Notes: generated by a model not told the origin, from the sequence alone. A stretch of 64,000 nt of DNA from Cyanophora paradoxa CCMP329 (GCA_004431415.1 QPMI01000535.1:372001-436000); one strand, 5' to 3'. Shown: positions 1 through 45,255, counted from the stretch's first letter. Translations and numbers: made by a program.

Positions 1-1036
1 ATTGCACGCTTCGAATAACCGAACTGGGTTCGAAAAAGCTCCTTGAATTTCGTGGCAGCCCACTCCGTCACGGTTGCATCAGTCGAATAAAATCGGCAGA
101 TCGCTTCCACTGTGCCTCGATTAAGAGATATCATGCCCTTTCCCAGTCCAAGCCGCTCTCGAATAGATGCGTAGGGTGCCTTTGCCAGCTTTTCGATTAC
201 TGTCTTCAGGCTCAGCCCGCGTGGATTTAATTTCACATACTCAAAGCATTCGAGCACGCAGTCATTCGCTGGGACATCGGGCAGTAAAGCTTGTCGACTG
301 TTCTGTGATAAAAAGGCAGTTTCGGTACGTTGCCTAGGGCGCCAGCCGCGTTATCTGCGATCAGCACTTCAATTGATGTCACTGTCCAAAAATCGTCTTC
401 CTGGTACGACATTTGAGCCGCCATCCACTGCGCAATGCGCTCATCCAGGCTCTCGGTCAAGGTCTGCAGTGCATTCTGTCTAATCTGAATCAGCTGCGTT
501 GTGTACATGTGATTGTTGTCAAAGCGGAACCGAATTATCACAAAGCGCCCTATCATCTCCGCAACGCCCAGCTGTCCGAGGATGTCAATCGTTAAATTCT
601 TGACCGACTCAGGATCAAAGTTGGGCTCAATCGCATATACATGCTTATCAAACAGCAAATTCGGATAGCGGTGATGCCTGTGAGAAAGCACACCATCTAG
701 ATCTCGTGGCACGGGAATTTCTTCAACGTCTTGAAATATATTCGGGACGTCTTCTAGTATCGCGTCCTCGGCCTGAACGGCGTTTGCGCGAGCTGCTGCA
801 ATTGCGCCGAAATGGCCTGCGAGCTGGCTTTCAAATAATCGGCGAGCTGGGCGAACTGTCCCTCGCAATCGCAGCAGTGTCGCAATATAGTTGCGAATCG
901 TGCGGCCCCAGGTCCCGCCGCTAGCGTCCGCTAGGCGCATCAGTTTGTTTCGAAATGTCCCGTGAACATATCCACGATCGTAAAGCTCTGTCGCTAAGTT
1001 TCTAAGTTCGGTCTTAAGTGCTGCAGTGGTGGCCAT
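1..1036 (-). CDS. 5' part of a probable Polinton/Maverick-type protein-primed DNA polymerase B (terminal protein + vOTU-like region); 1-nt frameshift near 279-281; runs off the window start
   Basis: Intronless ORF from ATG 1036 (MATTAALK...). Adding one C to the CCC run after LYC gives ...FWTVTSIEVLIADNAAGALGNVPKLPFYHRTVDKLYCPDVPANDCVLECFEY...GMISLNRGTVEAICRFY...ELFRTQFGYSKRA, open to base 1. The W-x-x-x-SI...LP...NDC pattern resembles Polinton pPolB N-termini (by eye). No polymerase motifs lie inside the window. Confidence 0.5.
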
Positions 1037-1147
1037 TGCAATCGCTTTCAAGAAGAGGGACTGAAATTATTTTCGGAATTCAGCGCAACAATCTCTGACT
1101 GTCAGATAGACTGAGAGGAACCTTTAAGCCATAGCTCAGACGTTCGC

Positions 1148-1582
1148 GACTTAGGACAAAAGTTCACGTCGGCGTTCGCGACTTTGGACAAAAGTTCACG
1201 TCCAAAATCCTCAAGCATGCAGGCGCACCCCCACGCATGTCTCCCGCAATCTAGCCGCTAATATAGCCTCAATTACACTATAAGAGACGACTAGGACAGT
1301 TGTTAGCCAATTCGGGCGGCGTTCTGAAGTTCGTGACTTTGGACAAAAGTTCACGTCCAAAATCCCCAAGCATGCAGGCGCATCCCCACGCATGCGTGGC
1401 ATGATCAAAGCGCTAGTATAGCCTCAATTACACCACAGGAGACTACTAGACTACTTGCTAGCCGATTCGGGCGCCGTTCTGAAGTTCGTGACTTTGGACA
1501 AAAGTTCACGTCCAAGGTCGCCTAGTGACTTTGGACAAAAGTTCACGTCCAAGGTCGCCTAGTGACTTTGGACAAAAGTTCA
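1148..1582. repeat. Six dispersed copies of a ~24-bp motif GACTTTGGACAAAAGTTCACGTCC, within 155-bp and 37-bp duplications
   Basis: Copies start at 1148, 1180, 1335, 1490, 1527 and 1564 (the last is truncated). Each has an internal ACTTT/AAAGT inversion. Confidence 0.9.
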
Positions 1583-1592
1583 AGAGCAATCT

Positions 1593-2164
1593 CTAGGCCT
1601 TATCGATCTGGCTATCCTTATCACTGTCAGGCTTGATGATCTTCGAGATCTCTCCGCGAATGCGGCGTGCAAGTTGAATGTCCTTCGGCATGATAGTGAC
1701 GCTGCAACGGAAAACGATCAGAGGATTGCAGGATATGACAAAAAGCAAGTTGGCTCACCGTTTAGCATGAATCGCGCACAGGTTAGCATCTTCGAACACT
1801 CCCACCAGATAAGCCTCGGCGGCAGTCTGGATCGCCAGCATGGCGTGCGACTGGAAGCGCAAGAGGGGATTAATGTCCTGAGTGATCTCGCGAACGAGTC
1901 GCTGGAATGGCAGCTTGCGAATCAGGAGATCCGTGGTCTTCTGGTACTTGCGGATCTCGCGCAACGCCACAGTGCCTGCAATCGTGATAATTAGATGAAA
2001 GCGACGGACGCACAGCTGCAGGGAATCCGTTGCTTACCTGGGCGATAGCGATACGGTTTCTTGACCGGACTAGCAAGAGGCAGCTTCACCTTGACTACGT
2101 TCGGCTGCTGACGTTCAGCGTTGCCCACAGTGCGCCTCGTCGGGTTGGCCTTCACGCGCGCCAT
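1593..2164 (-). CDS. Divergent histone H3 variant (3 exons)
   Basis: Exons 2164-2038, 1975-1759 and 1701-1593 with GT-AG introns of 62 and 57 bp give [150 protein letters not shown]. The H3 fold is unmistakable. Confidence 0.95.
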
Positions 2165-2777
2165 GTTTGCTGCAGCTGCTTTGTGCTTCTAGAAGGTTGC
2201 TGCTGCTCTATACGTGGGGTACTCGTACTAGTACTAGCAGGGGGTAAATTATGCAGGCTGCGCAGCGCGTGCACGTGATCGTACGATAGGCTACAGCTCC
2301 GCGCAGCGTTGTGCACACTGTGCCACGGTGCTCCTTTTTCGACGCATGCGCACGTGTTTTCTGGAGTTTTTTGGCGGTTCGGTTTCAAGTTGTTTCTTGC
2401 ACGTGTTTTTTATTAGGTCTGAAAAATCTGACTGCAAGCATTGGTCGGTTTTATTTGCATGCTGCATGTAATATATGTATATGTCGGGGACCCAGCTGAT
2501 CATGATCGCGAGCCGCGCGTGTTCGGCCGATTCGGTGGGGACTCGGTCGGTAAGTTGGGGAACTGCTACAAGTCTAGATCTAGACTCAGACTCTAGACTC
2601 ACTCAGTGTGACTCTAGCACTGCACTGCAGTACCAGGCTACTACCGTAGTACCAGGCTACTACCAGCTAAGTACTAGTCTAGCTAGCGACCTTCGTGCCG
2701 CGAGTTCTCTACTGAATCGATTTGCATGAATTCGAAATGAACAATGCGCAGAGCAAGTATTACCCGAATCACCGTAA

Positions 2778-3206
2778 GCTGGCATAAAAGTGAAGTATTA
2801 GATTTTAAACTTCTATGCTGGCATAAAAGTGAAGTATTAGATTTTAAACTTCTATGCTGGCATAAAAGTGAAGTATTAGATTTTAAACTTCTATGCTGGC
2901 ATAAAAGTGAAGTATTAGATTTTAAACTTCTATGCTGGCATAAAAGTGAAGTATTTGATTTTAAACTTCTATGCTGGCATAAAAGTGAAGTATTAGATTT
3001 TAAACTTCTATGCTGGCATAAAAGTGAAGTATTAGATTTTAAACTTCTATGCTGGCATAAAAGTGAAGTATTAGATTTTAAACTTCTATGCTGGCATAAA
3101 AGTGAAGTATTAGATTTTAAACTTCTATGCTGGCATAAAAGTGAAGTATTAGATTTTAAACTTCTATGCTGGCATAAAAGTGAAGTATTTGATTTTAAAC
3201 TTCTAT
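2778..3206. repeat. Tandem array, 11 x 39 bp (GCTGGCATAAAAGTGAAGTATTAGATTTTAAACTTCTAT)
   Basis: Exact 39-bp period. Copies 5 and 11 share an A>T variant. No spacers. Confidence 0.98.
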
Positions 3207-3721
3207 CCTACTAGGCTACTATGCTGGCCGTGAGTTCGGCCGATTCGATGGAGATTCGGTTGGTAAGTTGGGGAACTGCCGCAGCATTGAGTCCATTGAC
3301 TCAAGTGAATCGATTTACAGGCGGCCGCTGGCAGGCTGTGGCCGTTAACGTTGGGCAGCCGCTGAGCCTGCAGCTGGCAGGCGCCGGCGTGCCGCGGCAG
3401 ACTGTGCATATGCGCATGTTCACAGACTCGCTTCCGTAGTACAGAGCTGTCAACACAGCAGCTGCAGCAACCGCTCCATCCCGGAGTCCGTTTGCACATT
3501 CAACGGTAAGCTAACATGAAAGGTTGTGCATGCGGGGCCTGATCATGAGATGAGTCGCTATGCATGCAAGCAGAACTAATGCATATATACATGCTCACAG
3601 CTGCAGGTTGCTCACAGCAACCATATACGCGTGAACGCCACACAGGTGTGCATCTTGACACTATATATATATCATACGCAGTGTGCAGCACTCTCATCGA
3701 TCTTACGTCGGCATGTGCAGC

Positions 3722-5165
3722 ATGTCTATCAAAATCAGAGAACCGAATGAGAAGAAAACACGGCACTTTGTAACATTTGAGCTCGTTGATCGTAGAGAGT
3801 GTGACGACGACGATATGACGAAAGAGGAATGGGATGAGTGCCTGTGGAAGACTCTAGATGCTCTGTTTTACGGCCCCAGTCTTATTCGCACGAAGATCAA
3901 GTTTGCTCAATTTGCAGTATTCAAAACGACAACAAATGATGTGTTCCAAATTAAGGTATGCACCCATGCGAATTGAACAATGTAAATTGCGCCCATGCAC
4001 ACTGTTGCATATCACTCTCATTTACTTGACGTTTTCAGGGATTGATCACGACGAATACTAGTTATAATTGTACAGTTAAGCACATGAAAGACGCGTTGGA
4101 GATTCAGTTTGCAGATGATGGCGATTATTTCGGGCACACGCCCAATTACATTACTCCTCTTTTTGGGAAGACGGCTCAAAAAAAGGAACTGGAGACGCTA
4201 AACGTCAAGTCGAATAGATTGTCGAGCTGGTCAAATGGATCGGTGCGCAATGTACATGTATGGCGCGCACTGCATTCTGGCTCTAATGCTATTATAGCTG
4301 GACAACCAGGGAAATAGAAGATCCCCTGCCGAAGTGCAGCTTCGTGATAAAGTTCGACGTTTCCTCCGTGGTGATTGCATTCTCTTTTCTCACAATCATG
4401 TCTTGATTTGCATTTGCACAGAGCCAAGGAAATATGCGGATTTCATAGAACGGTTTCCACTCAAGTCTCGCGCTCTGGCCGGCCAAGCTGTGTTTACATG
4501 TGACAGGGACCGGAAAGCTCTATTTCTAGAGCTTTTTCCCAAGAGGAAAACCTACACAAAGATGTATTTTGTCACAGGTCTTGCTTTCACTCAAATTCTC
4601 CGACTGATAATATATATCTTCACACATTGTCAGGTGGCTCCCCAGAATCCCTGATTCAAAAGCTGATCGAGACCTACCCAGAGTCGGAAGTTTGGAAAAA
4701 ACCTGGCACGGTGTGCACTTATCGTGATAAAGTCTCTTTTATCTGATGGCAATGGTCACCTAGGAACGCGCTGGGTTCTGGGATGGCTACAATGGGGAAT
4801 CGTACATTTTTATCCCCAATTTTAGGGGTGAAATCTCCTTGAGCAGTATTATAAATGCTTGTTCTCCTCTTTCAAAGGCAAACTTGCCCATAATGTATGG
4901 TAACGAAATTTGGTTAGCTTCTACTCTTTTTATTTTTACAAGCGAAATTCACGTACGAGAGGTAATCGGTTATCGCTCCGGAAGTAATTACGTTACAAAA
5001 GCTGCATATCGTGATTTTAAAGATTTTGCGGCATGTTCCGGTGGTGGAATTATCCGTATTAAGAATATCGAAAAGCTTCTTAAGGCACGACAGGCCTATA
5101 GAAATGTAAAGAGAGATCTCGTAGTTGAATCTCCTGATGACATCTTGAAGATTTTTGATGACTAA
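3722..5165 (+). CDS. Spliced CRESS-DNA-virus (circovirus-like) Rep homolog with degenerate HUH and SF3 helicase motifs
   Basis: GT-AG introns at 3956-4038, 4243-4297, 4371-4421, 4578-4633 and 4711-4763 give one open frame. It includes ...SNGSLDNQGNRRS...RKTYTKMYFVTGGSPESLIQKLIETYPESEVWKKPGTERAGFWDGYNGESYIFIPNFRGEISLSSIINACSPLSKANLPIMYGNEIWLASTLFIFTSE..., collinear with circovirus Rep (QGxRSD; GPPGCGKS; WWDGYxGE; IDDFYG; KGG; ITSN). Confidence 0.8.
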
Positions 5166-5425
5166 GTTAGCTAGGTTCTTGTGAGCCAAAGGCTATGCAA
5201 GCTAGCTTGACGCTTTCCAAAATCAGCTAGGTCTCTTGTGAGTAAAATACTACGCAAGCTAGCTGGCGCTTTCTCCTGAGGCCGCAGCAGACCGCGCGCA
5301 AGCAACCGGGGCCCCAAGTACACCCACACACGCCCTCCTAAACTCAGTTCCGATATCTCCCCAAACAAACGCCTAATCAACACGCCTACTCTTTCTCACT
5401 AATTTCGCTCATCGATCACGCTTAT

Positions 5426-5493
5426 AGGGGTGGACCCCTGATGGTAAAACCAGACTTTGGGGGGCGGTCTGGTTTGGGGGGGGGTCCACCCCT
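5426..5493. other. 68-bp fold-back (hairpin or mini-MITE)
   Basis: AGGGGTGGACCCC pairs with GGGGTCCACCCCT; inner AAACCAGAC pairs with GTCTGGTTT. Confidence 0.8.
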
Positions 5494-5743
5494 TTACAAC
5501 AGACGGATCAGGCGCTAGCCGATCAGGTATTTGGATCGGTATATGTATATGATAGTATCGATCTGGAATTCGAAGACCGTCGACGTCCGACGGTCGACGG
5601 CATATAACATCAATTGCAACTTGCAAGTTAGGATGTCCATGCGCATGCCATGATCGTGATGCGCGTACGCGTGGATTTAAATGCGCATAGTATCGGCTGT
5701 TCGAAGCTGATCACGAGCAGCTATAGATTATTCAATGAATTAC

Positions 5744-6052
5744 CTCGGAAAAGACGATGATCCCGTTCCCGTCCGTATCAAACTCGTTGATCATGTTTCT
5801 GCACAGCCGCCGCGGCCGCGGCGCATTATTAATTGCACGTCACCACACAAGTAGGAAGCCTAAGGAATTTCGAATGCATTCGCGAACGCATACGTACTGG
5901 ATCTCGGCGTCCGTGGGAGTCTGGCCGTAAGATGCCATGACCGCGACGATTTCGGCTTTGGTCATGGAGCCGTCTCCGTTGGTGTCGAAGTTGCTGAACG
6001 CATCCGCGATCTCAGAGATCTGCTCTTCGGTGAACTGCCCCGTCGATGCCAT
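5744..6052 (-). pseudogene. Calmodulin-like EF-hand gene, N-lobe only (downstream exons not found)
   Basis: MASTGQFTEEQISEIADAFSNFDTNGDGSMTKAEIVAVMASYGQTPTDAEIQ, intron, NMINEFDTDGNGIIVFSE, then a GT donor with no recognisable next exon. Confidence 0.7.
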
Positions 6053-7976
6053 CTGGATCTGCGCACAAACTCGAAGCGGTGAGCGCGCGCGATCGCGAGC
6101 CAGCTGCAGCGCCCCGACGCGCATGCGCCTAGGCCTGCAGCTGTGCCCTGGCCTGGCCAGGCCGACCGCGTGCGTATACGTATATACGTATTCGTATACG
6201 GGCACGGCGCGGGCATGCGCACGGCCGATCAGCGCACCGGTTCGAAGCCTTAAGCTAAAACGCGAACGCGCTAGGGTGACCCGGTGTCCTTCGGAATACA
6301 AGTTCTGTCCGTCGGACAATGAGCGCTGAAGCTGGATGGTGTCGAGCTCGAGCACACTGTGACCGTGGCGTGTACTATAACTAGGAGCGCTATATAGCAA
6401 GCTGCACGCGCTAGCGATAGGCACCGCTAACGCTCCTAGCATGCACACGCACCTCCTACGAGGGATCCTGGGCCGGGAAGCGCGCGTGATCGACCGTGCA
6501 GCGTGCGCATGCGCGGGACGCGGCGCTGAGTCGGCGGCGCCGGCGCCGGCGCCGAATGGGCGCGCCGGCGCCGGCGCCGGCGCCGGCGGTACTTCCGGAA
6601 GTTTTTTCTGCCGGATCATCGGATCTGTCAAAAAAAGAGCCCCCCCCCCCTTCATCCACTTGCCAACTTGCAAAAAAAACGAATTCGAATATCGGCCGCG
6701 GGCCAACTCGGACGGTAAACTCGGCGGGCCAACTCGGACGCGGGAACGTTGACTTGTAACGAGCAGATCTAGGCCCGATTCTAGAGTCGCCGGCGCCTCA
6801 CGCCGAGCTCGAGGGACACGCGTACGCAGAAACCGAGACCGAGAATTCGAAGAGGGCAAGGCCAGGAGCTCGAGGAGAGACATCAATGTTTTTTTAAAAA
6901 TGCATTTGCGCCGAATCAATGCGCGTGCGTACGGACATTGTCGGACAATACTCGCTCTTCATAATCCTACTCTTGCTGCAGCAATTGCAAGTATGTTTGG
7001 GAATCATCACCATCATTGTTCATTTCCGACCACAAACGTCAATTTTCAAGCGAGGCGTTACATTCAACAGCAAGGCGATGCATTTGAATATTCGGACTTA
7101 TGTTCGAATGTTCCAGCCTTTTTACTGATCGGGATTCGGGAGCCACAGGCGCACGTCTGCTTCGGCATCGAGCGGGGGCGGGGGCGAGGGCGCGCCCTCG
7201 CCCGCCCCGAGCCGCACGCCGCCCTCCTGCTCCAGCAGCAGCGCGAGCTTCCCCGACATCACCGTCGCCCCGTCGAACTGGCGCCCGTTCGCGTTCCCGT
7301 GAGCGGCGGCCCGTGCTCAGGGGGCGAGGAAGGGGGGATCCAGATCTAGAGGGGCGGACCTTGCAGCCGTGGAACTCCTGCGCCCGCTTCTTCCCGATGC
7401 GCCTGGCGCAGAAGACGCGCTGCGAAGGGCCTTGCGCATCAGCGGACCGGCTCACATAAAGCTTCGAAGAGGCGGCGCGGATCGCACGGGGAGGGTCGAG
7501 ATGGATACGGTCCCGTCGGGGCGGGCTGCCGCCAGCAGGCCCCGACCGCCAAGCGCGTCCTGCGCGCGCACGCGCGAGCATCAGAATACGCGCGCGCGGT
7601 ACGAGAGAAATGCAAATTAAATCTATTTAGCCGGCGCACCTCTGAAAACGCGTAGCCTTTGAGTTGTTCGGACTTTGCTTCGGCCGCGGCCGCGGGTCCT
7701 TCCTAAGTACGGTACACGTGGTCATGATCAGCGGCTAGTTAACGTTTGGCGGGCTGCGAGCGAACAGCAACGAAATAAGAATTCCCCGCACCTCGGAGGG
7801 CGCGTGTCCGGACGCCGAGGCCGCTGGGGAGGCCGAAGCCCAGACCACCTCCTCCTCGCCGTCCGGAGCGACGGCGCACACTCTCGTGTCAACCTGAGAC
7901 GAGATTCACGCGCGGCGCGGGACGGCCCGCGCCGCGCCGAGAGATAGCCTAAGGTGGCTTAGGTGTGGCGGTAGAG

Positions 7977-10900
7977 TTAAGACTCTGCCCTGTCGCGCGA
8001 GCGCGAGCTGGCGAACTTCAGCTTGACTTGGCCCCCGGCCGCGGGGGCCTGCAGCCGGCCACGGCCCTCCGCACGGGCGCCCGCGAGCTCGACGCCGGCC
8101 TGCATGTCCCAGACGAGGAGCGAGCTATCCACGTCGGCGCTCCCCGTCACCACCCGCCTCCCGTCCTGCCGCCACCGCCATCGCCAGCCCCGCGCGAGGT
8201 TCCCAAGTCAGTTCCCGAATGCAGAGTGCACGTGGTTTCGTCGAGGTCGATCTCCCGCCCCCAGAGCTCCGGGGATCCTAGAAAGCACGTACACGCACTA
8301 TCGCTGCCTATCGCGCGCGCCACGCCGCTCACCGGCGAGATCGACAGCGATGTGGCGAGCATGCTGATGGTCCGGCCCGAGGCCGACAGCCGCGGCTTCC
8401 GCAGCTGCACGCCCGTCTCCAGGTCCCACACCCGCAGCGTCTTGTGGTCGCACCCCGTCACGATGTACTTGCCGTCCTGAGCCGCGCGTAAGTACGCGTA
8501 ACGCGTCCTTTATGATTCGTATCATCCGCAGATGTCTCTCGAACTCACCGGCGTGATAGCGATCGAAGATGCCATGCTCTTGTGGCCCTTCAGGCGCCGC
8601 AGCTCGGCCCCGCTCTCCAGGTCCCAAACGCGCAGGGTCCAGTCCCGGCTTCCCGACACGGCGCGCCTCCCGTCCTGCGGTCCGTCCGAAAATTAAACCG
8701 CGCGTCAGCGTTGGAGGCTTTCCTGCCGTGAGATCCCGGCCCGGCCCGCACCGGCGAGATCGCGACGGAGAGAACGGGGCCTTCGTGACCCGTGATCACC
8801 CGCAGCTCCGCCCCGCTCTCCAGGTCCCACAATCGCAGCGTCTTGTCGCCGCTGCCCGACAACGCGCGTTTCCCGTCCTGCGCGGCCCCGGGCCCCCGCG
8901 TCAAACGTGGTCGAATGCCGCACACGCTTCTTTTTGCCGAAATAATATCGAGTTACAGAGGCTCTCGGTCAAGCTGCATCACACGCACCTGCGTGACTGC
9001 AACGGAGACGACCGTGTCGTCGTGGCCCGTGAGCGTCCGCAGCTCTGCCCCGCTCTCCAGGTCCCAGACTCGCAGCGTGTTGTCCGCGCTCCCCGACACA
9101 GCGCGCAGCCCGTCCTGCGACCCGAAAATCCAAGTAAATTTGAAGAATGTGCAATCCTCCATCCGCTTCGGCTTTTTAATAATTATTCAAGCTTGAAGTC
9201 TTCGACCGTGCCAGGGCCCGCAAAGTCTCGAACGCACCGGCGAAACCGCCAACGAGCGGACGTACTCGGTGTGCCCAACAAGCTGCCGCAGCTCCTCCCC
9301 GCTCTCCAGGTCCCACAGACGCAGCGTCTTGTCCTCGCCCCCCGACAGTGCGCGCTTCCCGTCCTGCGAGCGATCCGAAGAGATTACAATCGCAGACAGG
9401 CCGGGGCTATTCATATGCATGGCACTCTAGCACTCCGTGCCTCTCGCGCACCGGCAGAACCGCGACGCAGTACGCATCCCCGTCGTGACCAGTGAGCCGG
9501 CGCAGCTCGGACCCGGTCTCAAGGTCCCACAGCCGGAGCATCCTGCCCTCCTTGCTCCCCGACACGGCGCGCTTCCCGTCCTGCAACGTGCACAAGGGCC
9601 GAAGGTCAGCGCGAGCTGTGTCGAAAACGCTGAGCTTAATTATGATCTTGAAAATGTTAAACGAAAGTATAGGCCCCAACTCCCTAAGTCGGCCTCTATC
9701 GGCCTTGAAACGCTGGCCGGCGACGTTTAGGAAGACGCCCGTCAGCGATGTTTAGACAATGGCAAGCCGTTCTTGCATTCGAACTATTCGCAGTCGGTCT
9801 ATCCGGGCCCTCTATCGACGTCTCGGTCTCTCTTCAACCGCGGGTCGCGTCCGCGCACCGGTGAAATTGCAACCGACCAGACGTCGCCTTCGTGACTCGT
9901 AACCTGCCGTAGCTCCGCCCCGCTCTCCAGGTTCCACAATCGCAGGACTTTGTCGTCGCTGCCCGACACGGCGAGCTTTCCGTTCTGCGGCGCGCCTGGT
10001 CAGCTTTCGCGCCTGCACCAGCGAAGAAGCGCGCCTGCTTCCAAAAGACATCGTTCTAGATCTAGGCCTCGCGATCGGCTGCTAGTCTCAAGCGTTCGCT
10101 CCCAATATTCGACTTCGAATCTCTCATTTCCCGTACCGGCAAGACCGCCACCGAGTTGACGGTGCTCTTGTGGCCGGCGAGGCACTGCAGCTCCGCCCCG
10201 CTCTCCAGGTCCCACAGCCTCAGCGTCTTGTCGCCGCTCCCCGACAACGCGAGCTTCCCGTCCTGCGGCCGCCATGTCAGCACCATAGAAATGAGAGTCC
10301 ATTCATTTTCGCACGCACGGGCAAGAATGCCAATGCGAAGACCCGATCCTCGTGGCCCGTGATCACCCGCAGCTCCGCCCCGCTCTCGAGATCCCAGACC
10401 CGCAGCGTCTTGTCCTTGCTTCCGGAAAGCACACGCGTTCCGTCCTGAGATCCGAGGCCCGCATCAGAAACCAGAGCATGCGCAGCCTCCAACGCGCACG
10501 CACCGGCGAGATCGCCACCGCGCGGACGGACCGCTTGTGGCCCACAAGCACCCGCAGCTCTGCCCCGCTGTCCAGGTCCCACACGCGAACCGTCTCGTCC
10601 TCGCTGCCCGACACGGCGCGCTTTCCGTCCTGCGAAGCGACCAGATTCACAACCGGAGGCTGGGCTTATTAGACTCTCTCCTGGCCGCATCCACGCACCG
10701 GCGTAATGGCGACGGACCAGACGTCTTTCTCGTGACCGGTGAGCCGACGCAGCTCCGAACCGGTCTCCAGGTCCCACACCCAGAGCGTGTGGAGGCTGCC
10801 GGACACGGCGCGCTTCCCGTCCTGCAGCCGAGAAACGCTCGCGATTGATGGGCAGCGAGGGCCCGCCGACGGGGAGCGAAACACAGAGGCCTCCAGCTCA

Positions 10901-13900
10901 TTTAACCGGCCTCTCTTAGTTCGTTTGGGCTGCTAATTACAATTCGATGTAACGCTTCTTTTCTGGCGCCGGCGATTTATGAATGGTCATCAGCTATATA
11001 GATGCGTTATCCTGGTCACAAATTTATAGACGCCCATGACGAGTTCGGCGCCTCCAGATCCGTGGCCGTAGAACGTGAACGCTTCCGAACAAGCGCAAGT
11101 CACGCGTGCGCACCGGTGAGATCGCGACTGCATGGACGTCGTCTATATGGCCCGCAAGCACCCGCAGCTCTGCCCCGCTGTCCAGGTCCCACACGCGAAC
11201 CGTCTTGTCCTCGCTGCCCGACACGGCGCGCGTTCCGTCCTGCAGCCAACTCATTAACAGAGTCACCCGAGCCAAATTAAACACTCGATTTATGGGAGGC
11301 CTAGGAGATATGAGATCTTTTCCCTTTTCCATTCAACGTTTCGCCCCCGAATGACTAAGCATGCGCACCGATGAGATCGCAACCGACCAGACGTCGCCAT
11401 CATGACCCTCCAGCCTGCGCATCTCCGCCCCGCTCTCCAGGTCCCACACCCGCAGCGTCTTGTCGTCGGCGCCCGACACGGCGCGCTTCCCGTCCTGCGT
11501 GGCGAGCAGCGCCAGTCAGGACGGATCGAAACACCCTTAAATTTTCGTGAATTGTGGCTTGCACCGCACCGGCGTCACAGCGACGGCGTTCACGGACTTG
11601 GTGTGTCCGTGGAACGCCGGGTGGAGCGTGACGCTGCAGCCAGTGAGGACAGAGCCGCGGAGGTCCGCCCCGCAGAGGTTCGCTTCGAGAAGGGTAGAGC
11701 CGGTGAGGTCCGCCCCGCGCAGGTCCGCCCCCGCCGCTTCCATCCGCTGCAGGTCGGCTCCCGGCACTCGAATGCCCCACAGCTGGCTGCCCGCGAAGCT
11801 GAAGCCAGCTGCGAAAAACCATGAACGTGATCAGCAGTAAAACTAAAAGCTAAATCAGAGCCGATCGCACCGCGATTGAGGATCGTGATGGCGTTCGCCG
11901 AAGCAGTGATGTCCCCCGGCGTCGCGTCCGCGCGACGGCTCTTCTTTATTAAGCGCAAAAGTTCCTGTTGCCATAAAAATGCATATGGGAGGGTAAGTGA
12001 TGATCATAAATGTTCCCCAAAGCATGATAATTTCTCGCTTGCGCACGTTGCGGTAGTTGACATCGGCGGTGCAATGGTCAGCGAGGAACTGAACGATCTT
12101 GGGCTCCTTTGTCAGCAATCTGATCGCGAGCCGCGCCAGCCGGTCAGAACACGCAGCGCGGGATTCGGAACAATAAAAAGCCCCGCGCAAGAACTCGCAC
12201 CGCAAGTGCAGAAGGCTCGGCTCCGCTCGCATGCTGGCTGCTCCGCTCGCGCCGATGCTTTGCACTAGATAGACGCTCTGCAACCTTGCGCGCGGCCGTG
12301 ACCTAGCCTCTCTCTCAATCGCCTGAGACAGACGATGGTCAAAAACTTGTAGGACAGGCGCAATTTACATGCAAAAAAGGATGAAGCACCGAGCGAAACG
12401 CGTCAGAACCATCCGCGTACGCGCCCTCCGCGACGAAATACTCGAGGAGAGTCTGTCGCTGGCTGTCAGACCGACAAGCTACAATTTTCAAGGCCTCGAA
12501 TCAATATTCGAAGGCGGACCTTGTGGAGGAAGCGAGCGGCGGTGCCGCCGTCGACGTCCCGCGCCTTCGACACGCGCATCGGGCAGTTCTCGCGGCAGAA
12601 GACGCGGACGGGGTCCGTCGCGTCGGAGAGGAGCTTGACGCAGCGCTCCAGGTCCGCGCTCGACGGGCTCCGCTGCGCGGTCGCGGTCGCGGGCGCGGCC
12701 GAGGACGGAGCGGCATCCGGGCCTGTCGCCGTCGCCGTCGCCTCGAGACCGATCGACATCGGGATGTACTTGGCGCTCTTGGGCTTCTTCTGCGGGCAGA
12801 GAACTTCCGAGACATTCGCCTGCGCGCGATCGCGAGTAATCATTAAATTGCAATTCAAACAGCGCCGGCTTCATTATCGTTATATCATTGCAGATCCGGT
12901 CGTACTTTGAACATGGAAGTGGCGAGGTCCTTGCAGAACTCGAGGCAGTAATCTTGGAAATCATCCACCTCCCAGTCTCTCAGAAGTCCTGATCGATCGT
13001 GCGAGCACTTTAGCTTTAAGACCAGAGACCGACCGCGGTATTAAGACGTCTCCACACCGTTTTCCTTGGCCGCCGCCGTCGTGGACTTGTTCCATTGCTG
13101 CCTAAACCAACGCTGCGCACGCGCATGGACATTAATCCACACGCAAATATAATGTTCCAAAGCGAGAACATATTCATCGTCGTGTATAGCAGACCTCGAC
13201 GAATTTCTGGTAGAGTTCGCGGATGGTCAAGAAGTACTTGGAGGCGACCTTGACGCTCCCGCCCCGCGTGCGGAAGAGCTCCTCCTGGCTGCATCGGGAT
13301 CGCAGTGCCGGTAAGCCTATGTGAACTGCGGCGAGCGAGCATAGGCACGCGCATGAACATGTATAGCACACCGGCTCTTCAAGATTCTTGGCAGTGATTC
13401 CACCACCATGCTGCGCGTCGAGGCGGTTGCAATTGTTTCTTAGCGAGAAGATTCCCCCACGCGAACTGAGAACCAGCGGGAAGATACCTGAGCGTGAAGG
13501 GGTTCTCGATGAGCGCCGCGGTGCCGGGGACCTGCGCAATGCGAGCCACGTACTCCTCCACGGTCCACGTGCAGTCCGGGTCTCGCTTCCCCTCCGGCGC
13601 GCCGGGCCCGCGGGCGCGAATGTACTGGCCGATGTAGTCCTCGACCTGCCGCCCGACCGCGAACGCTCAGCGTCGGCGGGCGCGATCCAGAATCGCTTAA
13701 GCCGACGGAGGCGGCCTCGGGTACCTGCCCCGCATCGAATGGGTGCGTGCAGACCTCCTCCAGCGGCTCGCCCGCCGCCGCAAATAGCGACTGCAGCAAG
13801 GATCGGGTATAACACGGCGCAAACGTTGGATATATACGAGCGCAGCGCACGGGATAGTCGGACTGGGCGGCGAGGTACGCCGAGCGGCAGGTGACGACGG

Positions 13901-31724: not shown

Positions 31725-32135
31725 CACAGCTCGCGAAAAAAAGTCGGTCCCCACAATTCGACTTGGCTGGGACTCGACTTGGGACTCGAATAATTCTGGC
31801 CTACAAAAGTTAAAACACCCGGGGTAGACGTACGCGACTCGGCGAAGCGCGCGACCAGCACGCACCGCAGCTTCCGCACGCAGCAGAGAGCGCCGCAGCT
31901 AGCCTCCAGGTTGCATATGGAGCAGGAACGGACGCCTTCGGGCGCCGCCGCGACGAAAACTAGCCCTGCGATCGCCTTCAAGGAAAGCGTGCGCGAAAAC
32001 GCCTGCGATCGCATATATATGCCATATATATGAAAAGGTTTAATTGACTGGCGTAGGGATTTTCCAAGTCGACTTGCCCCCCCCCCCTGTCATACAAACC
32101 GAGTTGTGGGGACCGACTTTTTTTCGCGAGCTGTG
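31725..32135. mobile_element. 411-bp MITE, CMC (CACTA/Chapaev)-like
   Basis: 32-bp perfect TIR CACAGCTCGCGAAAAAAAGTCGGTCCCCACAA; 3-bp TSD CGT at 31722-31724 and 32136-32138. Confidence 0.85.
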
Positions 32136-32980: not shown

Positions 32981-33424
32981 CACTGCCCCAAGGGCAGGAA
33001 TGTTTATACTAGTCATGATCACGGCCGGGCGTGCATGCGCACGTCCTGCTAGCTATCATACGTATACCGTACTATGATAGTATAGCGAATTTGAGACCGT
33101 CCGGCGTCCGAGCCGTCTGACGGTCATAGACCGTCGATAGACCGTCACGGCGTTACGTATATATACGTATATACATGTGCGAAATGACATGAAACTTGAT
33201 GCGAAGTTGAAAGCTAGCATTATACTAGTAGCCGACAACGGCTACACATAGTACGAATCGGCTAGTTGCCGGCTTGTAATGAAGAGCAGACCGGTCCAGG
33301 CTTTTCCAGTCATGATCATGAGACTCAAGAGTCAAGACTCAAGAGTCATGCATGATGCATCACACAAGATCATGATCGCTAATTATATGATTCAAAGGTT
33401 AAAACCCGCTGAAATATATATATA

Positions 33425-36400
33425 CAAGATCCGTGCTCCTGCGGAGCACTAAGTACGGCGAAGCCTCGCGGACGCCCTCGCGGCTGTCATAGTAGGCCTA
33501 TGTATAGGGCACTCAGCGACTGGCCAGCGGCCTGGCCGATCGCGAACAGCTTTCTGCAGCTGGCTGGAAGCTGGCTGGCTGACGGCCAGTCCAGCTAGCG
33601 CTGGCCGGCTAGAGGAATATTAATTTACTGAGGAAATAAAGGCTAGGGTGGAGCAGATTGAGAAGAGATTAATTATAATATTGTTGGGAAGGAGGCCCGG
33701 GAGGGGCGAGGTTGTCGCGGCCAGGCGCATGCACAGAGCTTGCGAATCGCTTAAACAGAATCTCGCGATCGAATGCATATAGCATTGATGTGCGGGGCTG
33801 CGGAGGCGAGGGCGCGCGGAAAGACGTGCAGGTCCATGCAGGATCGAATTTTCGGGGTCGGCTGGATTCTCGCGCCCTGTCGCGTCCTCGGAGCTCGCGA
33901 AAAGCTTAACAAAGATCTCAAATTACTATTGTAGCGATGCGCACGCGCGAGGATGCGAGGGCGCGCGGAAAGCTGTGCAGGTCCGTCCAGGATCGAATTT
34001 TCGGCGTCGGCTCGCGGCCCGGCACATCTGCAATGCGTGCGGAAGGCTTTGTCTACATCTGAAATGCTTATCATATTGTTCCGCGCATGCGCCGCGGCGT
34101 TGGCGCACGGAAAGATGTCCGGGTCTGTTCAGAATCGATTTTTTACCGTCGGCTGGGTTGTCGTGCTCTTCCGCGTCTTCAAAGCTTGTGGAAGGCTTCA
34201 AAAAAATGTGAAATGAATATTGTAGCGATGCGCATGCGCGAGGATGCGAGCGCGCAAGAAAAGGTCTTCAGGTCTGTAGAGGATCGAATTTTCGGGGTCG
34301 GCTGGGTCCTCGCGGCCCGGCGCATACGCAAAGCGTGCGGAAGGCTTCTTCTACATCTCAAATGCTTATGCTATTCTTCCGCGCATGTGCCGCGGCGCGG
34401 GCGCGCGGAAAGATGTCCGGGCTGTGCAGGATCGAATTTTTGCCACCGGGAGCCTTCCTGCGCTGTTCCGGCTCCGAAAAGCGGATCGCTGGAGTGCGCA
34501 GGTCCTGCTATGTCTATGCGCGCCCGTACGCATCGATTGCGCACGTCGCGGGACCGGCCGGAACCGGCCGGATCAAATTTTCGGCCGACTCTTCGCACTG
34601 GAGCGTCGAGGGTGCCCGAAATCGAGCCTGCCGCGATGCGCTCGCGCTCGCGCGTCATTCTGTATCGTTCTGGGGCGTCCCTGGCGCGATTTCGTCGCGG
34701 GACCGGGCGGGACCGGGTCCCACCTTCTGACTCGGACTGCATGTGTCGGAGGTTAAGTACCGGAATTGATCCAGAGGGAAATTCGATTTTCGCGCGACGC
34801 CCACGGGAGAGCGGTCGTCTTAGGGGAGCCAGGACGCTAAAAATGGATGTAGAGGGGTCTGTGGGGGTTCGGGCAGCTGTGTAATGTCCATCAATCGCGT
34901 CTGTGTCGAGGCAGAATTAATAATTCTGCCTCGAGGGAGTGTGACACGGAAATTATTTAGCAGGGGGGATCTTGAGTGGAAAAAAAGGTTAAAAAAGGAA
35001 TTTCGGTCGGCGGTTTTTGGGTTTGAGACAAGATCCGTGCTCCTGCGGAGCACTAAGTACGGCGAAGCCTCGCGGACGCCCTCGCGGCTGTCATAGTAGG
35101 CCTATGTATAGGGCACTCAGCGACTGGCCAGCGGCCTGGCCGATCGCGAACAGCTTTCTGCAGCTGGCTGGAAGCTGGCTGGCTGACGGCCAGTCCAGCT
35201 AGCGCTGGCCGGCTAGAGGAATATTAATTTACTGAGGAAATAAAGGCTAGGGTGGAGCAGATTGAGAAGAGATTAATTATAATATTGTTGGGAAGGAGGC
35301 CCGGGAGGGGCGAGGTTGTCGCGGCCAGGCGCATGCACAGAGCTTGCGAATCGCTTAAACAGAATCTCGCGATCGAATGCATATAGCATTGATGTGCGGG
35401 GCTGCGGAGGCGAGGGCGCGCGGAAAGACGTGCAGGTCCATGCAGGATCGAATTTTCGGGGTCGGCTGGATTCTCGCGCCCTGTCGCGTCCTCGGAGCTC
35501 GCGAAAAGCTTAACAAAGATCTCAAATTACTATTGTAGCGATGCGCACGCGCGAGGATGCGAGGGCGCGCGGAAAGCTGTGCAGGTCCGTCCAGGATCGA
35601 ATTTTCGGCGTCGGCTCGCGGCCCGGCACATCTGCAATGCGTGCGGAAGGCTTTGTCTACATCTGAAATGCTTATCATATTGTTCCGCGCATGCGCCGCG
35701 GCGTTGGCGCACGGAAAGATGTCCGGGTCTGTTCAGAATCGATTTTTTACCGTCGGCTGGGTTGTCGTGCTCTTCCGCGTCTTCAAAGCTTGTGGAAGGC
35801 TTCAAAAAAATGTGAAATGAATATTGTAGCGATGCGCATGCGCGAGGATGCGAGCGCGCAAGAAAAGGTCTTCAGGTCTGTAGAGGATCGAATTTTCGGG
35901 GTCGGCTGGGTCCTCGCGGCCCGGCGCATACGCAAAGCGTGCGGAAGGCTTCTTCTACATCTCAAATGCTTATGCTATTCTTCCGCGCATGTGCCGCGGC
36001 GCGGGCGCGCGGAAAGATGTCCGGGGCTGTGCAGGATCGAATTTTTGCCACCGGGAGCCTTCCTGCGCTGTTCCGGCTCCGAAAAGCGGATCGCTGGAGT
36101 GCGCAGGTCCTGCTATGTCTATGCGCGCCCGTACGCATCGATTGCGCACGTCGCGGGACCGGCCGGAACCGGCCGGATCAAATTTTCGGCCGACTCTTCG
36201 CACTGGAGCGTCGAGGGTGCCCGAAATCGAGCCTGCCGCGATGCGCTCGCGCTCGCGCGTCATTCTGTATCGTTCTGGGGCGTCCCTGGCGCGATTTCGT
36301 CGCGGGACCGGGCGGGACCGGGTCCCACCTTCTGACTCGGACTGCATGTGTCGGAGGTTAAGTACCGGAATTGATCCAGAGGGAAATTCGATTTTCGCGC

Positions 36401-38623
36401 GACGCCCACGGGAGAGCGGTCGTCTTAGGGGAGCCAGGACGCTAAAAATGGATGTAGAGGGGTCTGTGGGGGTTCGGGCAGCTGTGTAATGTCCATCAAT
36501 CGCGTCTGTGTCGAGGCAGAATTAATAATTCTGCCTCGAGGGAGTGTGACACGGAAATTATTTAGCAGGGGGGATCTTGAGTGGAAAAAAAGGTTAAAAA
36601 AGGAATTTCGGTCGGCGGTTTTTGGGTTTGAGACAAGATCCGTGCTCCTGCGGAGCACTAAGTACGGCGAAGCCTCGCGGACGCCCTCGCCGCTGTTACA
36701 GTAGGCCTATATATATAGGGCACTCAGCGACTGGCCAGCGGCCTGGCCGATCGCGAACAGCTTTCTGCAGCTGGCTGGAAGCTGGCTGGCTGACGGCCAG
36801 TCCAGCTAGCGCTGGCCGGCTAGAGGAATATTAATTTACTGAGGAACTAAAGGGTGGAGCAGATTGAGAAGAGATTAATTATAATATTGTTGGGAAGGAG
36901 GCCCGGGAGGGGCGAGGTTCTCGCGGCCAGGCGCATGCACAGAGCTTGCGAATCGCTTAAACAGAATCTCGCGATCGAATGTATATAGCATCGATGTGCG
37001 GGGCTGCGGAGGCGAGGGCGCGCGGAAAGACGTGCAGGTCCATGCAGGATCGAATTTTCGGGGTCGGCTGGATTCTCGCGCCCTGTCGCGTCCTCGGAGC
37101 TCGCGAAAAGCTTAACAAAGATCTCAAATTACTATTGTAGCGATGCGCACGCGCGAGGATGCGAGGGCGCGCGGAAAGCTGTGCAGGTCCGTATACGTAC
37201 AGGATCGAATTTTCGGGGTCGGCTGGGTCCTCGCGGCTCGGCGCATACGCAAAGCGTGCGGAAGTCTTTGCCTACATCTCAAATGCTTATGCTATTGTTC
37301 CGCGCATGCGCCGCGGCGTGGGCGCGCGGAAAGATGTCCGGGTCCGTGCAGGATCGAATTTTTGCCGTCGGCTGGGTTCTCGTGCTCTTTCGCGTCTTCG
37401 AAGCTTGTGGAAGGCTTTGATAAAATCTCAAATGAATATTGTAGCGATGCGCATGCGCGAGAATGCGAGGGCGTGCGGAAAGATGTTCAGGTCCGTACAG
37501 GATCGAATTTTCGGGGTCGGCTGGGTCCTCGCGGCCTGGTGCATTTAGAGACCGTGCGGAAGTCTTCTTCTACATCTAAAATGCATATGCTATCGTTCCG
37601 CGCATGCGCCGCGGCGTGGGCGCGCGGAAAGATCTCCGGGCCTGTCTAGGATCGAATTCTTGCCGTCGGGTATGTCCAGGATCGAATTTTTGCGTCGGCT
37701 GGGTTCTCGTGCCCTGTCGCGCCTGCAGAGCTTGCGAAAAGCTTTAAAAAGGAGTCAACTGAAAATTGTAGCGATGCGCTCGCGTGAGGATGCGAGGGCG
37801 CGCGGAAAGTTGTGCAGGTCCGTCCAGGATCGAATTTCCGGGGTCGGCTGGGTCCTCGCGGCCCGGCGCATTTAGAGACCGTGCGGAAGGCTTCTTCTAC
37901 ATCTCAAATGCTTATGCTATCGTTCCGCGCATGCGCCGCGGCGCGGGCGCGCGGAAAGATCTCCGGGCCTGTCTAGGATCGAATTTTTGCCGTCGGGTAC
38001 CTTCCTGCGCTCTTCCGGCTCCGAAAAGCGGATTTCGGGGGTGCGCAGGCGCTGCTATGTCTATGCGCGCCCGTACGCATCGATTGCGCGCGTCGCGGGA
38101 CCGGCCGGAACCGGCCGGATCAAATTTTCGGCCGACTCTTCGCACTGGAGCGTCGACGGCGCGCGAAATCGGGTTTGCGGCGATGCGCTCGCCCTCGCGC
38201 GTCATTCTGTATCGTTCTGGGGCGTTCCTGGCGCGATTTTGTCGCGGGACCGGGCGGGACCGGGTCCCACCTTCTGACTCGGACTGGATTTGTCGGAGGT
38301 TAAGAACCGGAATTGATCCAGAGGAATATTCGATATTCGCGCGACGCCCACGGGAGAGCGGTCGTCTTAGGGGAGCCAGGACGCTAAAATTGGCTCTAGA
38401 GAGGTCTGTGGGGGTTCGGGTGGCTGTGTGACTAGCAGCAATCGCGTCTGTGTCGAGGCAAAATTAATAATTCTGCCTCGAGGGAGTGCGACACGGAAAT
38501 TATTTAGCAGGGGGGATCTCGAGTGGAAAAAAAGGTTAAAAAAGGAATTTAGATCGTCGGTTTTTGGGTTTGAGAAAGAGGCTTCGCCTGAAAGAGGCTT
38601 CGCCTGAAAGAGGCTTCGCCTGA
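33425..38623 (-). mobile_element. Trimer of a non-autonomous Helitron/Helentron-like element
   Basis: Bodies 33425-35028, 35029-36633 (near identical) and 36634-38575 (diverged, longer), plus three stacked 16-bp 5' ends at 38576-38623. Element strand: 5'-TCAGGCGAAGCCTC ... GAGGCTTCGCC-GTACTTA-GTGCTCCgcaGGAGCAC hairpin-GGATCTTG-3'. Flanks A|T, no TSD. Confidence 0.85.
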
Positions 38624-38774
38624 TAAGCCTTGAAGATTCCATTTTTTAGATTTAGCATTCTCAGCAGATTAAATTAAGCTTAGGTTACAGACTTAATTCC
38701 AGTTACGTATACGAAGTAATATTAATATAAGCTAAGCCGCCTAGGTGACCGACGCGTACCGCGGCGTATACGTA

Positions 38775-39013
38775 CTGTAAACGTAGAAATTTTCGTCGAG
38801 ACTTAATTTCGACAAAACCCGAAAATCGTGACGAAAATATGGTTCGACAGCATCAAATTTTCGTCAGCCCCGCGACTCCGCCATAGACGGGTCAGCCGCT
38901 AGTATCCTTCTCCATACAAAATTTTCGTTCAAGAGTATCAAATATTCGTCAACGTGCAGGTCTGACGAATATAGACGAAATAAAGACGCTGTCGAAGATT
39001 CCTACGTTTGCAG
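38775..39013. mobile_element. TA-flanked MITE (Tc1/mariner-like)
   Basis: TA|CTGTAAACGTAGAAATTTTCG ... CGAAGATTCCTACGTTTGCAG|TA (3 mismatches), with internal AAATTTTCGTC/GACGAAAAT motifs. Confidence 0.7.
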
Positions 39014-39275
39014 TACGGCGGTCCGACGCCGGCTTACCACCGTGGCACTTAAAAAAGGTCCGAGTCCCGTCCGACGGTCCACTTTTAAATTAAAGTTTTG
39101 CGGAGTCCGTGAATCGTGTATATAGTGGCCCATATATCGATCAACTTAAAACTTAAAAACGTGCACGTGACACATATATATAGCTCTTAATTAGCTACTA
39201 ATAGGCTAGTAATAGCTATAGCTGCCGCCGGGCGCCGCGGCGCTGCCGCGCCGCGCCGACGCGCCGTGCCACGGC

Positions 39276-42200: not shown

Positions 42201-43092
42201 TCACATTTTTTTGAAGCCTTCCACAAGCTTTGAAGACGCGGAAGAGCACGACAACCCAGCCGACGGTAAAAAATCGATTCTGAACAGACCCGGACATCTT
42301 TCCGTGCGCCAACGCCGCGGCGCATGCGCGGAACAATATGATAAGCATTTCAGATGTAGACAAAGCCTTCCGCACGCATTGCAGATGTGCCGGGCCGCGA
42401 GCCGACGCCGAAAATTCGATCCTGGACGGACCTGCACAGCTTTCCGCGCGCCCTCGCATCCTCGCGCGTGCGCATCGCTACAATAGTAATTTGAGATCTT
42501 TGTTAAGCTTTTCGCGAGCTCCGAGGACGCGACAGGGCGCGAGAATCCAGCCGACCCCGAAAATTCGATCCTGCATGGACCTGCACGTCTTTCCGCGCGC
42601 CCTCGCCTCCGCAGCCCCGCACATCAATGCTATATGCATTCGATCGCGAGATTCTGTTTAAGCGATTCGCAAGCTCTGTGCATGCGCCTGGCCGCGACAA
42701 CCTCGCCCCTCCCGGGCCTCCTTCCCAACAATATTATAATTAATCTCTTCTCAATCTGCTCCACCCTAGCCTTTATTTCCTCAGTAAATTAATATTCCTC
42801 TAGCCGGCCAGCGCTAGCTGGACTGGCCGTCAGCCAGCCAGCTTCCAGCCAGCTGCAGAAAGCTGTTCGCGATCGGCCAGGCCGCTGGCCAGTCGCTGAG
42901 TGCCCTATACATAGGCCTACTATGACAGCCGCGAGGGCGTCCGCGAGGCTTCGCCGTACTTAGTGCTCCGCAGGAGCACGGATCTTGTTTTCTATAAATT
43001 ATGGATGGCCGAAACCGGGGGCAAAAATTATCCCATAATTATTCGAAAAATTATGGAATACTTTTTCCATAATTTATGGGCGGCGAACCCTG
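39276..43092. mobile_element. hAT-like non-autonomous element interrupted by a Helitron-like array (second copy 48464-49117)
   Basis: CAGGGATGTGAAA...AACCCTG ends; many subterminal AAATTAT(G) motifs; no 8-bp TSD. Confidence 0.5.
39666..42987 (+). mobile_element. Helitron-like array: stacked 5' ends, partial B, full B (40014-41384), A body (41385-42987)
   Basis: Same termini as the trimer. The empty site in the duplicated unit (CCTCTAAAAA|TTTTCTAT, 49012/49013) shows precise insertion with no TSD. Confidence 0.9.
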
Positions 43093-44689: not shown

Positions 44690-45255
44690 CGGACCGCCCC
44701 AGCGGCCCCCCACGAATCGCGCCCCCGCTCCCGCCGCAGCTGCTCCGCTGCCCCTCGCCGACGGCGCAATTCGCCGCCGCTGGACCCACGCTCGCTCTCT
44801 CCAGGCCCGCCGCCCGCTCCGCAGCCTTTCTGGCGGGCCGCCCCAGCGGCCCCCCACGAACCGCGCCCCCGCTCCCGCCGCAGCTGCTCCGCTGCCCCTC
44901 GCCGACGGCGCAATTCGCCGCCGCTGGACCCACGCTCGCTCGCTCCAGGTCCGCCGCCCGCGCCGCAGCCTTTCTGGCGGGCCGCCCCAGCGGCCCCCCA
45001 CGAACCGCGCCCCCGCTCCCGCCGCAGCTGCTCCGCTGCCCCTCGCCGACGGCGCAATTCGCCGCCGCTGGACCCACGCTCGCTCGCTCCAGGTCCGCCG
45101 CCCGCGTCGCAGCCTTTCTGGCGGGCCGCCCCAGCGGCCCCCACGAATCGCGCCCCCGCTCCCGCCGCAGCTGCTCCGCTGCCCCTCGCCGACGGCGCAG
45201 TTCGTCGCCGCTGGACACACGCTCACTCGCTCGAGGTCCGCCGCCCGCGCCACGC
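44690..45255. repeat. 144-bp GC-rich tandem repeat, ~4 copies (also ~53710-54276)
   Basis: AGCGGCCCCC anchor at 44701, 44845, 44989 and 45133. Confidence 0.9.

Follow-up and report, generated by a model that had tools for sequence, protein, structure and literature searches.

A repeated insertion, probably of Polinton type, that carries a variant histone H3 and an apparently inactivated CRESS Rep homologue in Cyanophora paradoxa

The stretch of DNA analysed here (the window) comprises 64,000 nt of the Cyanophora paradoxa CCMP329 genome (GCA_004431415.1 QPMI01000535.1:372001-436000), read on one strand and numbered from its first letter. A repeated insertion with a guanine plus cytosine content (GC) under that of the host genes is present at positions 1-5501: as an earlier note on this sequence had proposed, its GC (0.475) lies below that of the intron-rich host genes (0.63-0.72), although the first 1.5 kb of the right flank reaches only 0.57 and other low-GC stretches occur elsewhere in the window. 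Sampled words of 1-5600 are present at 82-86% in each of 20 DNA runs (18 studies), and the block therefore belongs to the host genome. It contains the start of a long open reading frame (ORF1), a gene for a variant of histone H3, a tandem array, and a homologue of the replication protein (Rep) of CRESS viruses, whose single-stranded DNA is circular and encodes that protein. These parts have the order and orientation given in the earlier note, with ORF1 and H3 pointing leftward, Rep pointing rightward, and an array of eleven 39-bp units between them. Rfam gave 0 matches within 1-6000. The features are as follows, TP denoting a terminal protein and vOTU a protease of the viral OTU type.

3..1036, minus: ORF1, a long gene without introns, present in its 5' part, with about 344 codons before the window edge; a helical N-terminus of ~85 aa, a terminal-protein-like domain, a linker and a vOTU-like start
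356..685, minus: predicted terminal-protein domain (PRD1-like TP, D1), residues 118-227, beta-beta-alpha-beta-beta-alpha-beta
3..269, minus: possible start of a vOTU protease; a Cys that may be catalytic is encoded at 258-260, in the expected place, and its His partner would fall left of the window
1141..1582, no strand: repeat cluster between H3 and the start of ORF1, with two 155-bp units, about three 37-bp units and four perfect TGGAC-N10-GTCCA inverted sites
1593..2164, minus: H3 variant of 150 aa, exons 2164-2038, 1975-1759 and 1701-1593, open frame
2516-2566 and 3229-3279, plus: direct repeat of 51 bp, 88% alike, flanking the array on both sides
2755..2763, plus: nonamer AAGTATTAC, on the Rep strand just before the array
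2778..3206, plus: tandem array, 11.0 copies x 39 bp, 99% matches, GC 0.28
3722..5165, plus: CRESS Rep homologue, full-length, 381-382 aa, exons 3722-3955, 4039-4242, 4298-4370, 4422-4577, 4634-4710 and 4764-5165
5149..5422, no strand: subterminal region common to a few copies, about 4-8x unique DNA
5423..5501, no strand: element end, with hairpin arms 5423-5438 and 5481-5496, an inner stem, and then the tip ...TTTACAACA at 5501

The right boundary of the insertion is sharp. Depths were taken from short-read contigs of three DNA runs (X1, X5 and X6) aligned to 1-7000, in which contigs of unique DNA have depths of 15-25, 24-39 and 73-121, respectively; summed contig depth is not copy number, and all of the depth ratios given here are rough. 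Between 5499 and 5505 the depth drops from 1675 to 33, and four of the eight listed contigs end exactly at 5501. The island, which had been drawn as 1..5400, is thus real but ends at 5501. Just inside the tip is a terminal hairpin (z -4.7 and -5.1; 0 of 200 shuffles), a pattern that was not found in viral contigs. Read inward on the minus strand, the tip is 5'-TGTTG and fits TGTNR, which an earlier study (PMC2836005) gives for the ends on which Gypsy and Ginger integrases act. The end of a long terminal repeat was considered and rejected, given that a long direct repeat opening with TG is lacking and that the depth climbs only in the final 100 bp. In run X5, one contig (about 2x) extends beyond the tip, behind 5502, with a second copy of the end's last 13 bases, which may mean that certain target sites are preferred or that the end is doubled. 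The TGGAC/GTCCA core of the internal sites (1185-1551) is also found in the terminal hairpin arms (5427-5492), and a single element-encoded protein could, judging by this shared motif, bind both.

Copies of the different parts are present in unequal amounts. The depth of the tip is ~16-30x that of unique DNA in all three DNA runs, and the four listed contigs ending at 5501 sum to about 20-24x by themselves, while ORF1-like DNA amounts to 7-12x in all three runs. The resulting tip:ORF1 ratio, near 2:1, is what about ten elements with the repeat at each end would give; solo ends would look alike. A near-identical H3 contig is found at 1.5-2.6x, corresponding to about two near-identical copies, and an identical ORF1 contig at 1.6-2.6x. 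Because both are at about 2x, it is likely that a sister copy shares both genes. The Rep gene is single-copy at 80% identity (1.1-1.6x the host flank). Thus, the depths rank as end > ORF1 > H3 > Rep, and H3 and Rep, like the array, therefore look like variable passengers near the tip rather than a fixed maintenance module. In addition, each of the three DNA runs has one single-copy contig in which 2659 is fused to 5176, with a short side of 25 letters only; this is a slender hint of a sister copy that has neither array nor Rep. The proposal of a conserved chromatin or segregation module is not supported on these grounds, with Rep in one copy, H3 at about 2x against 7-12x for ORF1-like DNA, and a joint that skips array and Rep. 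The idea of an endogenous element, on the other hand, is upheld by the integrated, repeated and Polinton-like character of the block (a sharp repeated end and a terminal-protein-like fold), and the possibility that its genes are single-copy host genes unlinked to element copies was checked and fails for ORF1 and H3. A further H3 relative, also at about 2x, joins 1686-1878; either a host gene or an additional copy of the element could account for it.

ORF1 contains a frameshift near 270, where an X was placed in the translation. It is likely to be an assembly error, because short-read contigs without any other difference show a gap of one base at this point in each of the three DNA runs. In two AlphaFold single-sequence models (pLDDT 42 and 55), residues 118-227 fold into two helices and a sheet of four to five strands, and S210/Y211 are predicted to lie in the loop preceding the last strand, the expected site of the priming residue; no Gly or Pro stands beside them. 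According to passages of Krupovic et al. 2024, terminal proteins have the LF/PAD (little-finger) topology with the priming Ser or Tyr before the last strand and a Gly or Pro beside it, and the best matches of PRD1-like terminal proteins are mavirus pPolB (a DNA polymerase of family B that uses a protein primer) and the little-finger type of the Y family (10.1101/2024.03.18.585575). When the models were compared with viral models using Foldseek, mavirus pPolB came out third in one search and first in the other (first place in BFVD, E 1.2e-2), and adintovirus proteins as well as a phage terminal protein appear further down; herpes- and poxvirus proteins with a stand-alone TP-like fold are placed alongside mavirus, with E-values near 1e-2. 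In the PDB, the top 23 listed rows are all Y-family polymerases, including an isolated little-finger domain (best E 7e-3). These predicted folds give moderate support to a Polinton-type terminal protein as the middle domain of ORF1.

What follows the TP-like domain resembles a vOTU start. The resemblance is unforced in an alignment with six Polinton pPolBs and is not statistically significant, and it is possible, from this similarity, that 3..269 begins a vOTU domain. Motif scans for vOTU starts like that of ORF1 returned 40 loci, all by chance (tblastn, 0/40). No polymerase domain is visible in the part of ORF1 inside the window, and because TP-vOTU also heads Tlr1-like helicases, as stated in portions of the same source (10.1101/2024.03.18.585575), the pPolB identity of ORF1 is unproven. 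Consequently, of the pPolB-like gene announced in the earlier note, a TP-like domain and a vOTU-like start can be seen but the polymerase itself cannot; we consider the odds to be slightly in favor of ORF1 continuing as pPolB. Matches to ORF1 in the Atlas (Mollusca, Parabasalia and Arthropoda clusters) all score under 0.9 and serve as leads only. The ORF1 family appears to lie far from sampled Polintons, because there is no relative among 1.84 billion cluster representatives, the sole match being a summed-repeat artefact. An IMG/VR contig used as a reference (L051), in which a pPolB frame of 1377 codons lies next to an rve integrase, represents a Polinton-type virus.

The H3 gene is interrupted by two GT-AG introns (62 and 57 nt), and its exon 2 matches Pfam Histone with an E of 2.9e-27. 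Relative to the commonest fetched H3, 76 of 92 residues of the fold (83%) and 16 of 43 of the tail (37%) are identical; the changes are concentrated in the tail and in loop 1, with the fold spared, and there is a C-terminal extension of 16 aa. The variant keeps K4, K36, K37 and K56, has the changes K9R, S10R, K14N, K18Q, K23N and K79N, and has lost the ARKS27 motif, in agreement with the earlier description of an H3 without the K9/K27 silencing sites. It has three of the four residues T31/Y41/H87/L90 (Y41, H87 and L90) as in plant H3.3, and position 31 is inside the diverged tail; these plant-type residues, with the GC and the 50-82-nt introns of the host genes, fit an algal host. A centromeric H3 (CenH3) is marked by a longer loop 1 and by replacement of Q68, F84 and T107. 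In the variant, loop 1 is of canonical length, Q68 and F84 are kept, and only T107A is present, and since three of the four marks fail, CenH3 was rejected. By its residues, the variant thus appears H3.3-like and is not a CenH3. According to one report, H87/L90 bind HIRA, and loss of K27 in Arabidopsis H3.15 blocks marking by Polycomb (PRC2) (PMC9797984). The repeat cluster at 1141..1582, next to this gene, recurs elsewhere in the genome, and its TGGAC-N10-GTCCA sites are candidate protein-binding or promoter sites.

Of the eleven units of the array, nine are identical and two have one change. The nonamer AAGTATTAC, which we take to be the origin nonamer of circovirus type, is matched once against 0.12 expected, and its first 8 bases are present in 9 of the 11 units. 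A stem-loop around 2755-2763 was looked for and none was found (hairpin z +1.09), and an active CRESS origin was rejected for this reason. The suggestion that the array is origin-like therefore keeps its one nonamer but is weakened both by the missing stem-loop and by the finding that 11 of 100 shuffles also have one. Loose contig ends at 2765 and 3174 suggest, thinly, that the array has a second locus, the left flank of which is related.

The Rep gene has an open frame across five GT-AG introns of 51-83 nt; eight donor/acceptor combinations near the chosen sites are open, with a difference of a few residues. The introns of the element (51-83 nt) are similar in length to the short introns of a WD40 host gene (50-82 nt). 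With a profile of 31 full CRESS Reps (from 50 loci), the homologue scores 25.5 bits, compared with at most 9.5 in 2000 shuffles, and its exon 6 is the only significant match to that profile among 1233 six-frame segments of the window. For exon 6 alone, PCV2 Rep is the top match in the PDB (E 0.1), IMG/VR agrees, and the Atlas gives 0.92 to a Cressdnaviricota cluster; a search with exon 6 for a longer protein found none. The homology is significant for the half containing the superfamily 3 (SF3) helicase, whereas the nuclease half is a colinear alignment of low confidence (hhalign probability 53%). The alignment crosses the exon joints, and the His of motif II, the Tyr of motif III, the Lys of Walker A, the acids of Walker B and the Asn of motif C are all replaced. 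Judged by these replacements, the homologue is catalytically dead as nuclease and as ATPase, as the earlier note had held. In contigs of a presumed RNA run (X21), neither gene is covered by matching pieces; they contain no more than one piece related to H3 and one related end, and this says nothing on expression.

Given these findings, we lean towards the view that 1-5501 forms the right-hand terminus of an integrated and repeated element of the Polinton or Polinton-like virus (PLV) kind, with a spliced H3 that lacks K9/ARKS27 and a dead, spliced CRESS Rep as passengers. The narrower statement that the element is of Polinton/PLV type is held with more assurance, as probable. In this model, the TGTTG tip would be processed by a retroviral-type integrase encoded left of the window, and ORF1 would join a terminal protein to a vOTU and prime the replication of linear DNA; most likely it would form the front of a pPolB, otherwise that of a Tlr1-like helicase. 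While resident in the nucleus, H3 and Rep would have gained introns of host style or retained them, and they would be expressed from the integrated copy. The H3, through its H87/L90 motif (HIRA, replication-independent loading), could form nucleosomes that carry K4/K36 marks and neither K9 nor canonical K27 methylation, and weaker silencing of the element is therefore proposed to follow. That the H3 variant does act against silencing is a tentative idea, to which we give somewhat less than an even chance. Rep would be an optional, non-enzymatic passenger of this copy, either a DNA binder or a decoy against single-stranded DNA (ssDNA) viruses, and was probably gained together with the neighboring array from an ssDNA replicon.

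Several observations weigh against this interpretation. Both ORF1 models are of low confidence, and among the rows of the three Foldseek searches only one, a herpesvirus protein, falls below E 1e-3. No sequence homologue of ORF1 was found among longer proteins, viral contigs, PHROGs or Pfam, and a profile of the N-termini of six Polinton pPolBs from IMG/VR gives -2.1 bits on ORF1, while shuffles reach 6.9. Neither an integrase (rve or tyrosine recombinase) nor a DDE integrase-like transposase nor a double jelly-roll (DJR) capsid protein nor a packaging ATPase is among the ORFs of 1-5501, the rest of the element being left of the window, and only one sharp end falls within the window. A search for a target duplication from loose ends gave three consensus rows only and no pair, and position 5435 sits in a hairpin arm and may count double. 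The H3 variant has a lysine one place from K27, and drift of the tail under relaxed selection would also remove K9/K27. At 80% identity, H3 occurs in a minority of the ORF1-bearing copies, and it is therefore not essential to the family. Finally, endogenous protist viruses are described as intronless in sections of one survey (PMC10120064).

A capsid-less DNA transposon with terminal inverted repeats (TIRs), Ginger-like or transpoviron-like, could have transduplicated unrelated genes, in which case ORF1 would be a stand-alone TP-fold or OTU protein and there would be no self-synthesis. TGTNR tips, introns and OTU domains are all listed as Ginger features in passages of PMC2836005, H3-like cargo is known from hAT transposons (portions of PMC3538342), the stand-alone TP-like folds of herpes- and poxviruses are level with mavirus in the Foldseek ranking, and ORF1 has no match to the Polinton profile. 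However, the OTU of Ginger comes after the integrase (same passages of PMC2836005), and a TP-like fold that precedes a Cys helix in an intronless ORF is the pPolB/Tlr1-like order (parts of 10.1101/2024.03.18.585575). We therefore rate such a transposon as unlikely. Also to be considered is an element able to exist as an episome by means of a maintenance module of its own: the 39-bp array would be an origin or partition site to which the dead Rep binds, and H3 would serve as a centromere-like mark. The array and Rep adjoin each other and may both be missing from the sister copy, a CRESS-type nonamer stands at the start of the array, whose units mostly hold eight of its nine bases, and T107A is one CenH3-like change. 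Nevertheless, the family has about ten members but a single copy of Rep, the presumed second array locus is without a Rep detectable at 80% identity, the origin stem-loop is missing, and the length of loop 1, Q68 and F84 are like those of ordinary H3. Binding of the array by Rep is accordingly rated as improbable, and the module as a whole as more improbable still.

It might also be supposed that H3 and Rep have no role at all and are decaying or neutral passengers whose motifs were lost by drift after capture. The loss of all catalytic Rep motifs and the low copy numbers of both genes would be in keeping with this, and drift has also been suggested for the Pyrenophora H3L genes (PMC3538342). 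The frames have stayed open, however, with canonical splice sites across seven introns despite deep divergence, and the changes in H3 cluster in the tail and loop 1 while sparing the fold. Such neutrality is as improbable, in our estimate, as the maintenance module. A bolder extension of the Polinton/PLV interpretation is a deeply divergent Polinton-like lineage with spliced counter-defense genes, in which an H3 that retains its activating lysines, but is unmarkable for heterochromatin or Polycomb silencing, would be loaded on the provirus and keep it reactivatable and the dead Rep would bind its own array or block ssDNA viruses. We think it doubtful, with perhaps one chance in a few. If it were true, a histone would be the anti-silencing factor of a small integrating DNA virus.

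Among known systems, the element is closest to Polintons, PLVs and mavirus-like virophages, with which, as far as excerpts of the literature describe them, it shares a low-GC, multi-copy insertion, a sharp repeated end, and an intronless ORF having a predicted LF/PAD-like TP fold and then a Cys helix. The pPolB of mavirus is the best viral fold match of ORF1. The differences are that ORF1 has no sequence match to the six pPolB N-termini and that the element carries an intron-bearing H3 as well as Rep. A mobile element with a divergent H3, neither canonical nor CenH3, is described in parts of a study of a hAT element of Pyrenophora tritici-repentis (Manning et al. 2013, PMC3538342); that element, in contrast, is cut-and-paste, 5.6 kb long, and has 26 near-identical H3L copies, whereas here there is a probable TP-type element with about two near-identical H3 copies and a shortened tail without K9/ARKS27. 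Avipoxvirus apvRep and HHV-6 U94, in sections of Kinsella et al. 2023 (PMC10193959), are likewise cases of a double-stranded DNA replicon with an ssDNA-virus Rep whose nuclease motifs are inactivated, and the dead captured Reps of avipoxviruses are under selection (same sections). Here, by comparison, the nuclease and all helicase motifs are dead, and Rep is full-length, has five spliceosomal introns, and belongs to one copy of a nuclear integrated element.

Virus-associated H3 with loss of K9 or K27 also occurs, among the histones of giant viruses, bracoviruses and nudiviruses (parts of Talbert et al. 2022, PMC9145170) and in IMG/VR; the word polinton does not occur in that review. The viral H3 genes of IMG/VR differ from the present one in that most keep K9: among 50 H3-bearing loci with 41 readable tails, 32 keep K9, 26 keep a K27-like motif and 4 lose both, and none of the 50 has pPolB, rve or Rep neighbors (tblastn, 8 queries). 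K9R or K9H recurs in H3 genes on five viral contigs of that set (L108, L119, L121, L124 and L129). The Bidnaviridae are ssDNA insect viruses in which a pPolB is combined with a parvovirus-type SF3 helicase gene of ssDNA-virus origin. Their pPolB has a TP, according to parts of 10.1101/2024.03.18.585575, and the Rep seen here differs in being CRESS-type, dead and spliced. Replitrons, as described in passages of Craig 2023 (PMC10288648), also bring a CRESS-related Rep into algal and protist nuclear genomes, but theirs is an active HUH protein without a helicase and with short direct terminal repeats; a Replitron was rejected here because the Rep homologue has a helicase domain and no active Y1 HUH site. 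PLVs with HUH genes are reported among Mriyavirus relatives in parts of a further source (10.64898/2026.06.19.733378).

In the parts of the literature covered, no Polinton or PLV was found for which an H3 or a CRESS Rep is reported; supplements could list such genes. The word "histone" is absent from three PLV surveys, and a fourth has it once, for an RNA stem-loop. The combination, which the earlier note had called unfamiliar, thus has no counterpart that we found in a Polinton or PLV, but the transposon-borne H3 and the dead Reps of poxviruses (portions of PMC3538342 and PMC10193959) had been overlooked. Each of the two is already published, and it is their occurrence in a Polinton-like element that appears to be new, as we found neither reported there. 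Transposon-borne histones would thereby be extended from cut-and-paste elements to a likely self-synthesizing, virus-like element, and an element H3 without the K9/K27 motif would provide a direct mechanism for the escape of integrated protist viruses from permanent silencing. Furthermore, the intron-blind gene callers used for endogenous viruses, as described in sections of PMC10120064, would miss both spliced genes.

Beyond the element, a small host gene with two EF-hands (half a calmodulin) extends from 6052 to about 5730 on the minus strand and faces the element end at a distance of about 230 bp; a presumed RNA run covers 5617-5850. The WD40 gene lies at 8300-11800, minus, with one repeat per exon and exons that are all very alike. 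At 31725-32135, a 411-bp stretch is bounded by 41-bp inverted repeats (93%), starts with CACAG and ends with CTGTG, and presumably resembles a miniature inverted-repeat element (MITE) of the Transib type. Nested 1.6-kb repeats of about 149-bp units, in both orientations and some of them 99.9% identical, occupy 33400-43000, 48700-52150 and 60200-61400; no convincing ORF was found in this family within the window. Finally, 43130-48349 and 52148-57373 are a 5.2-kb duplication (99.7% identity) with tandem arrays of 144 bp and 342 bp.

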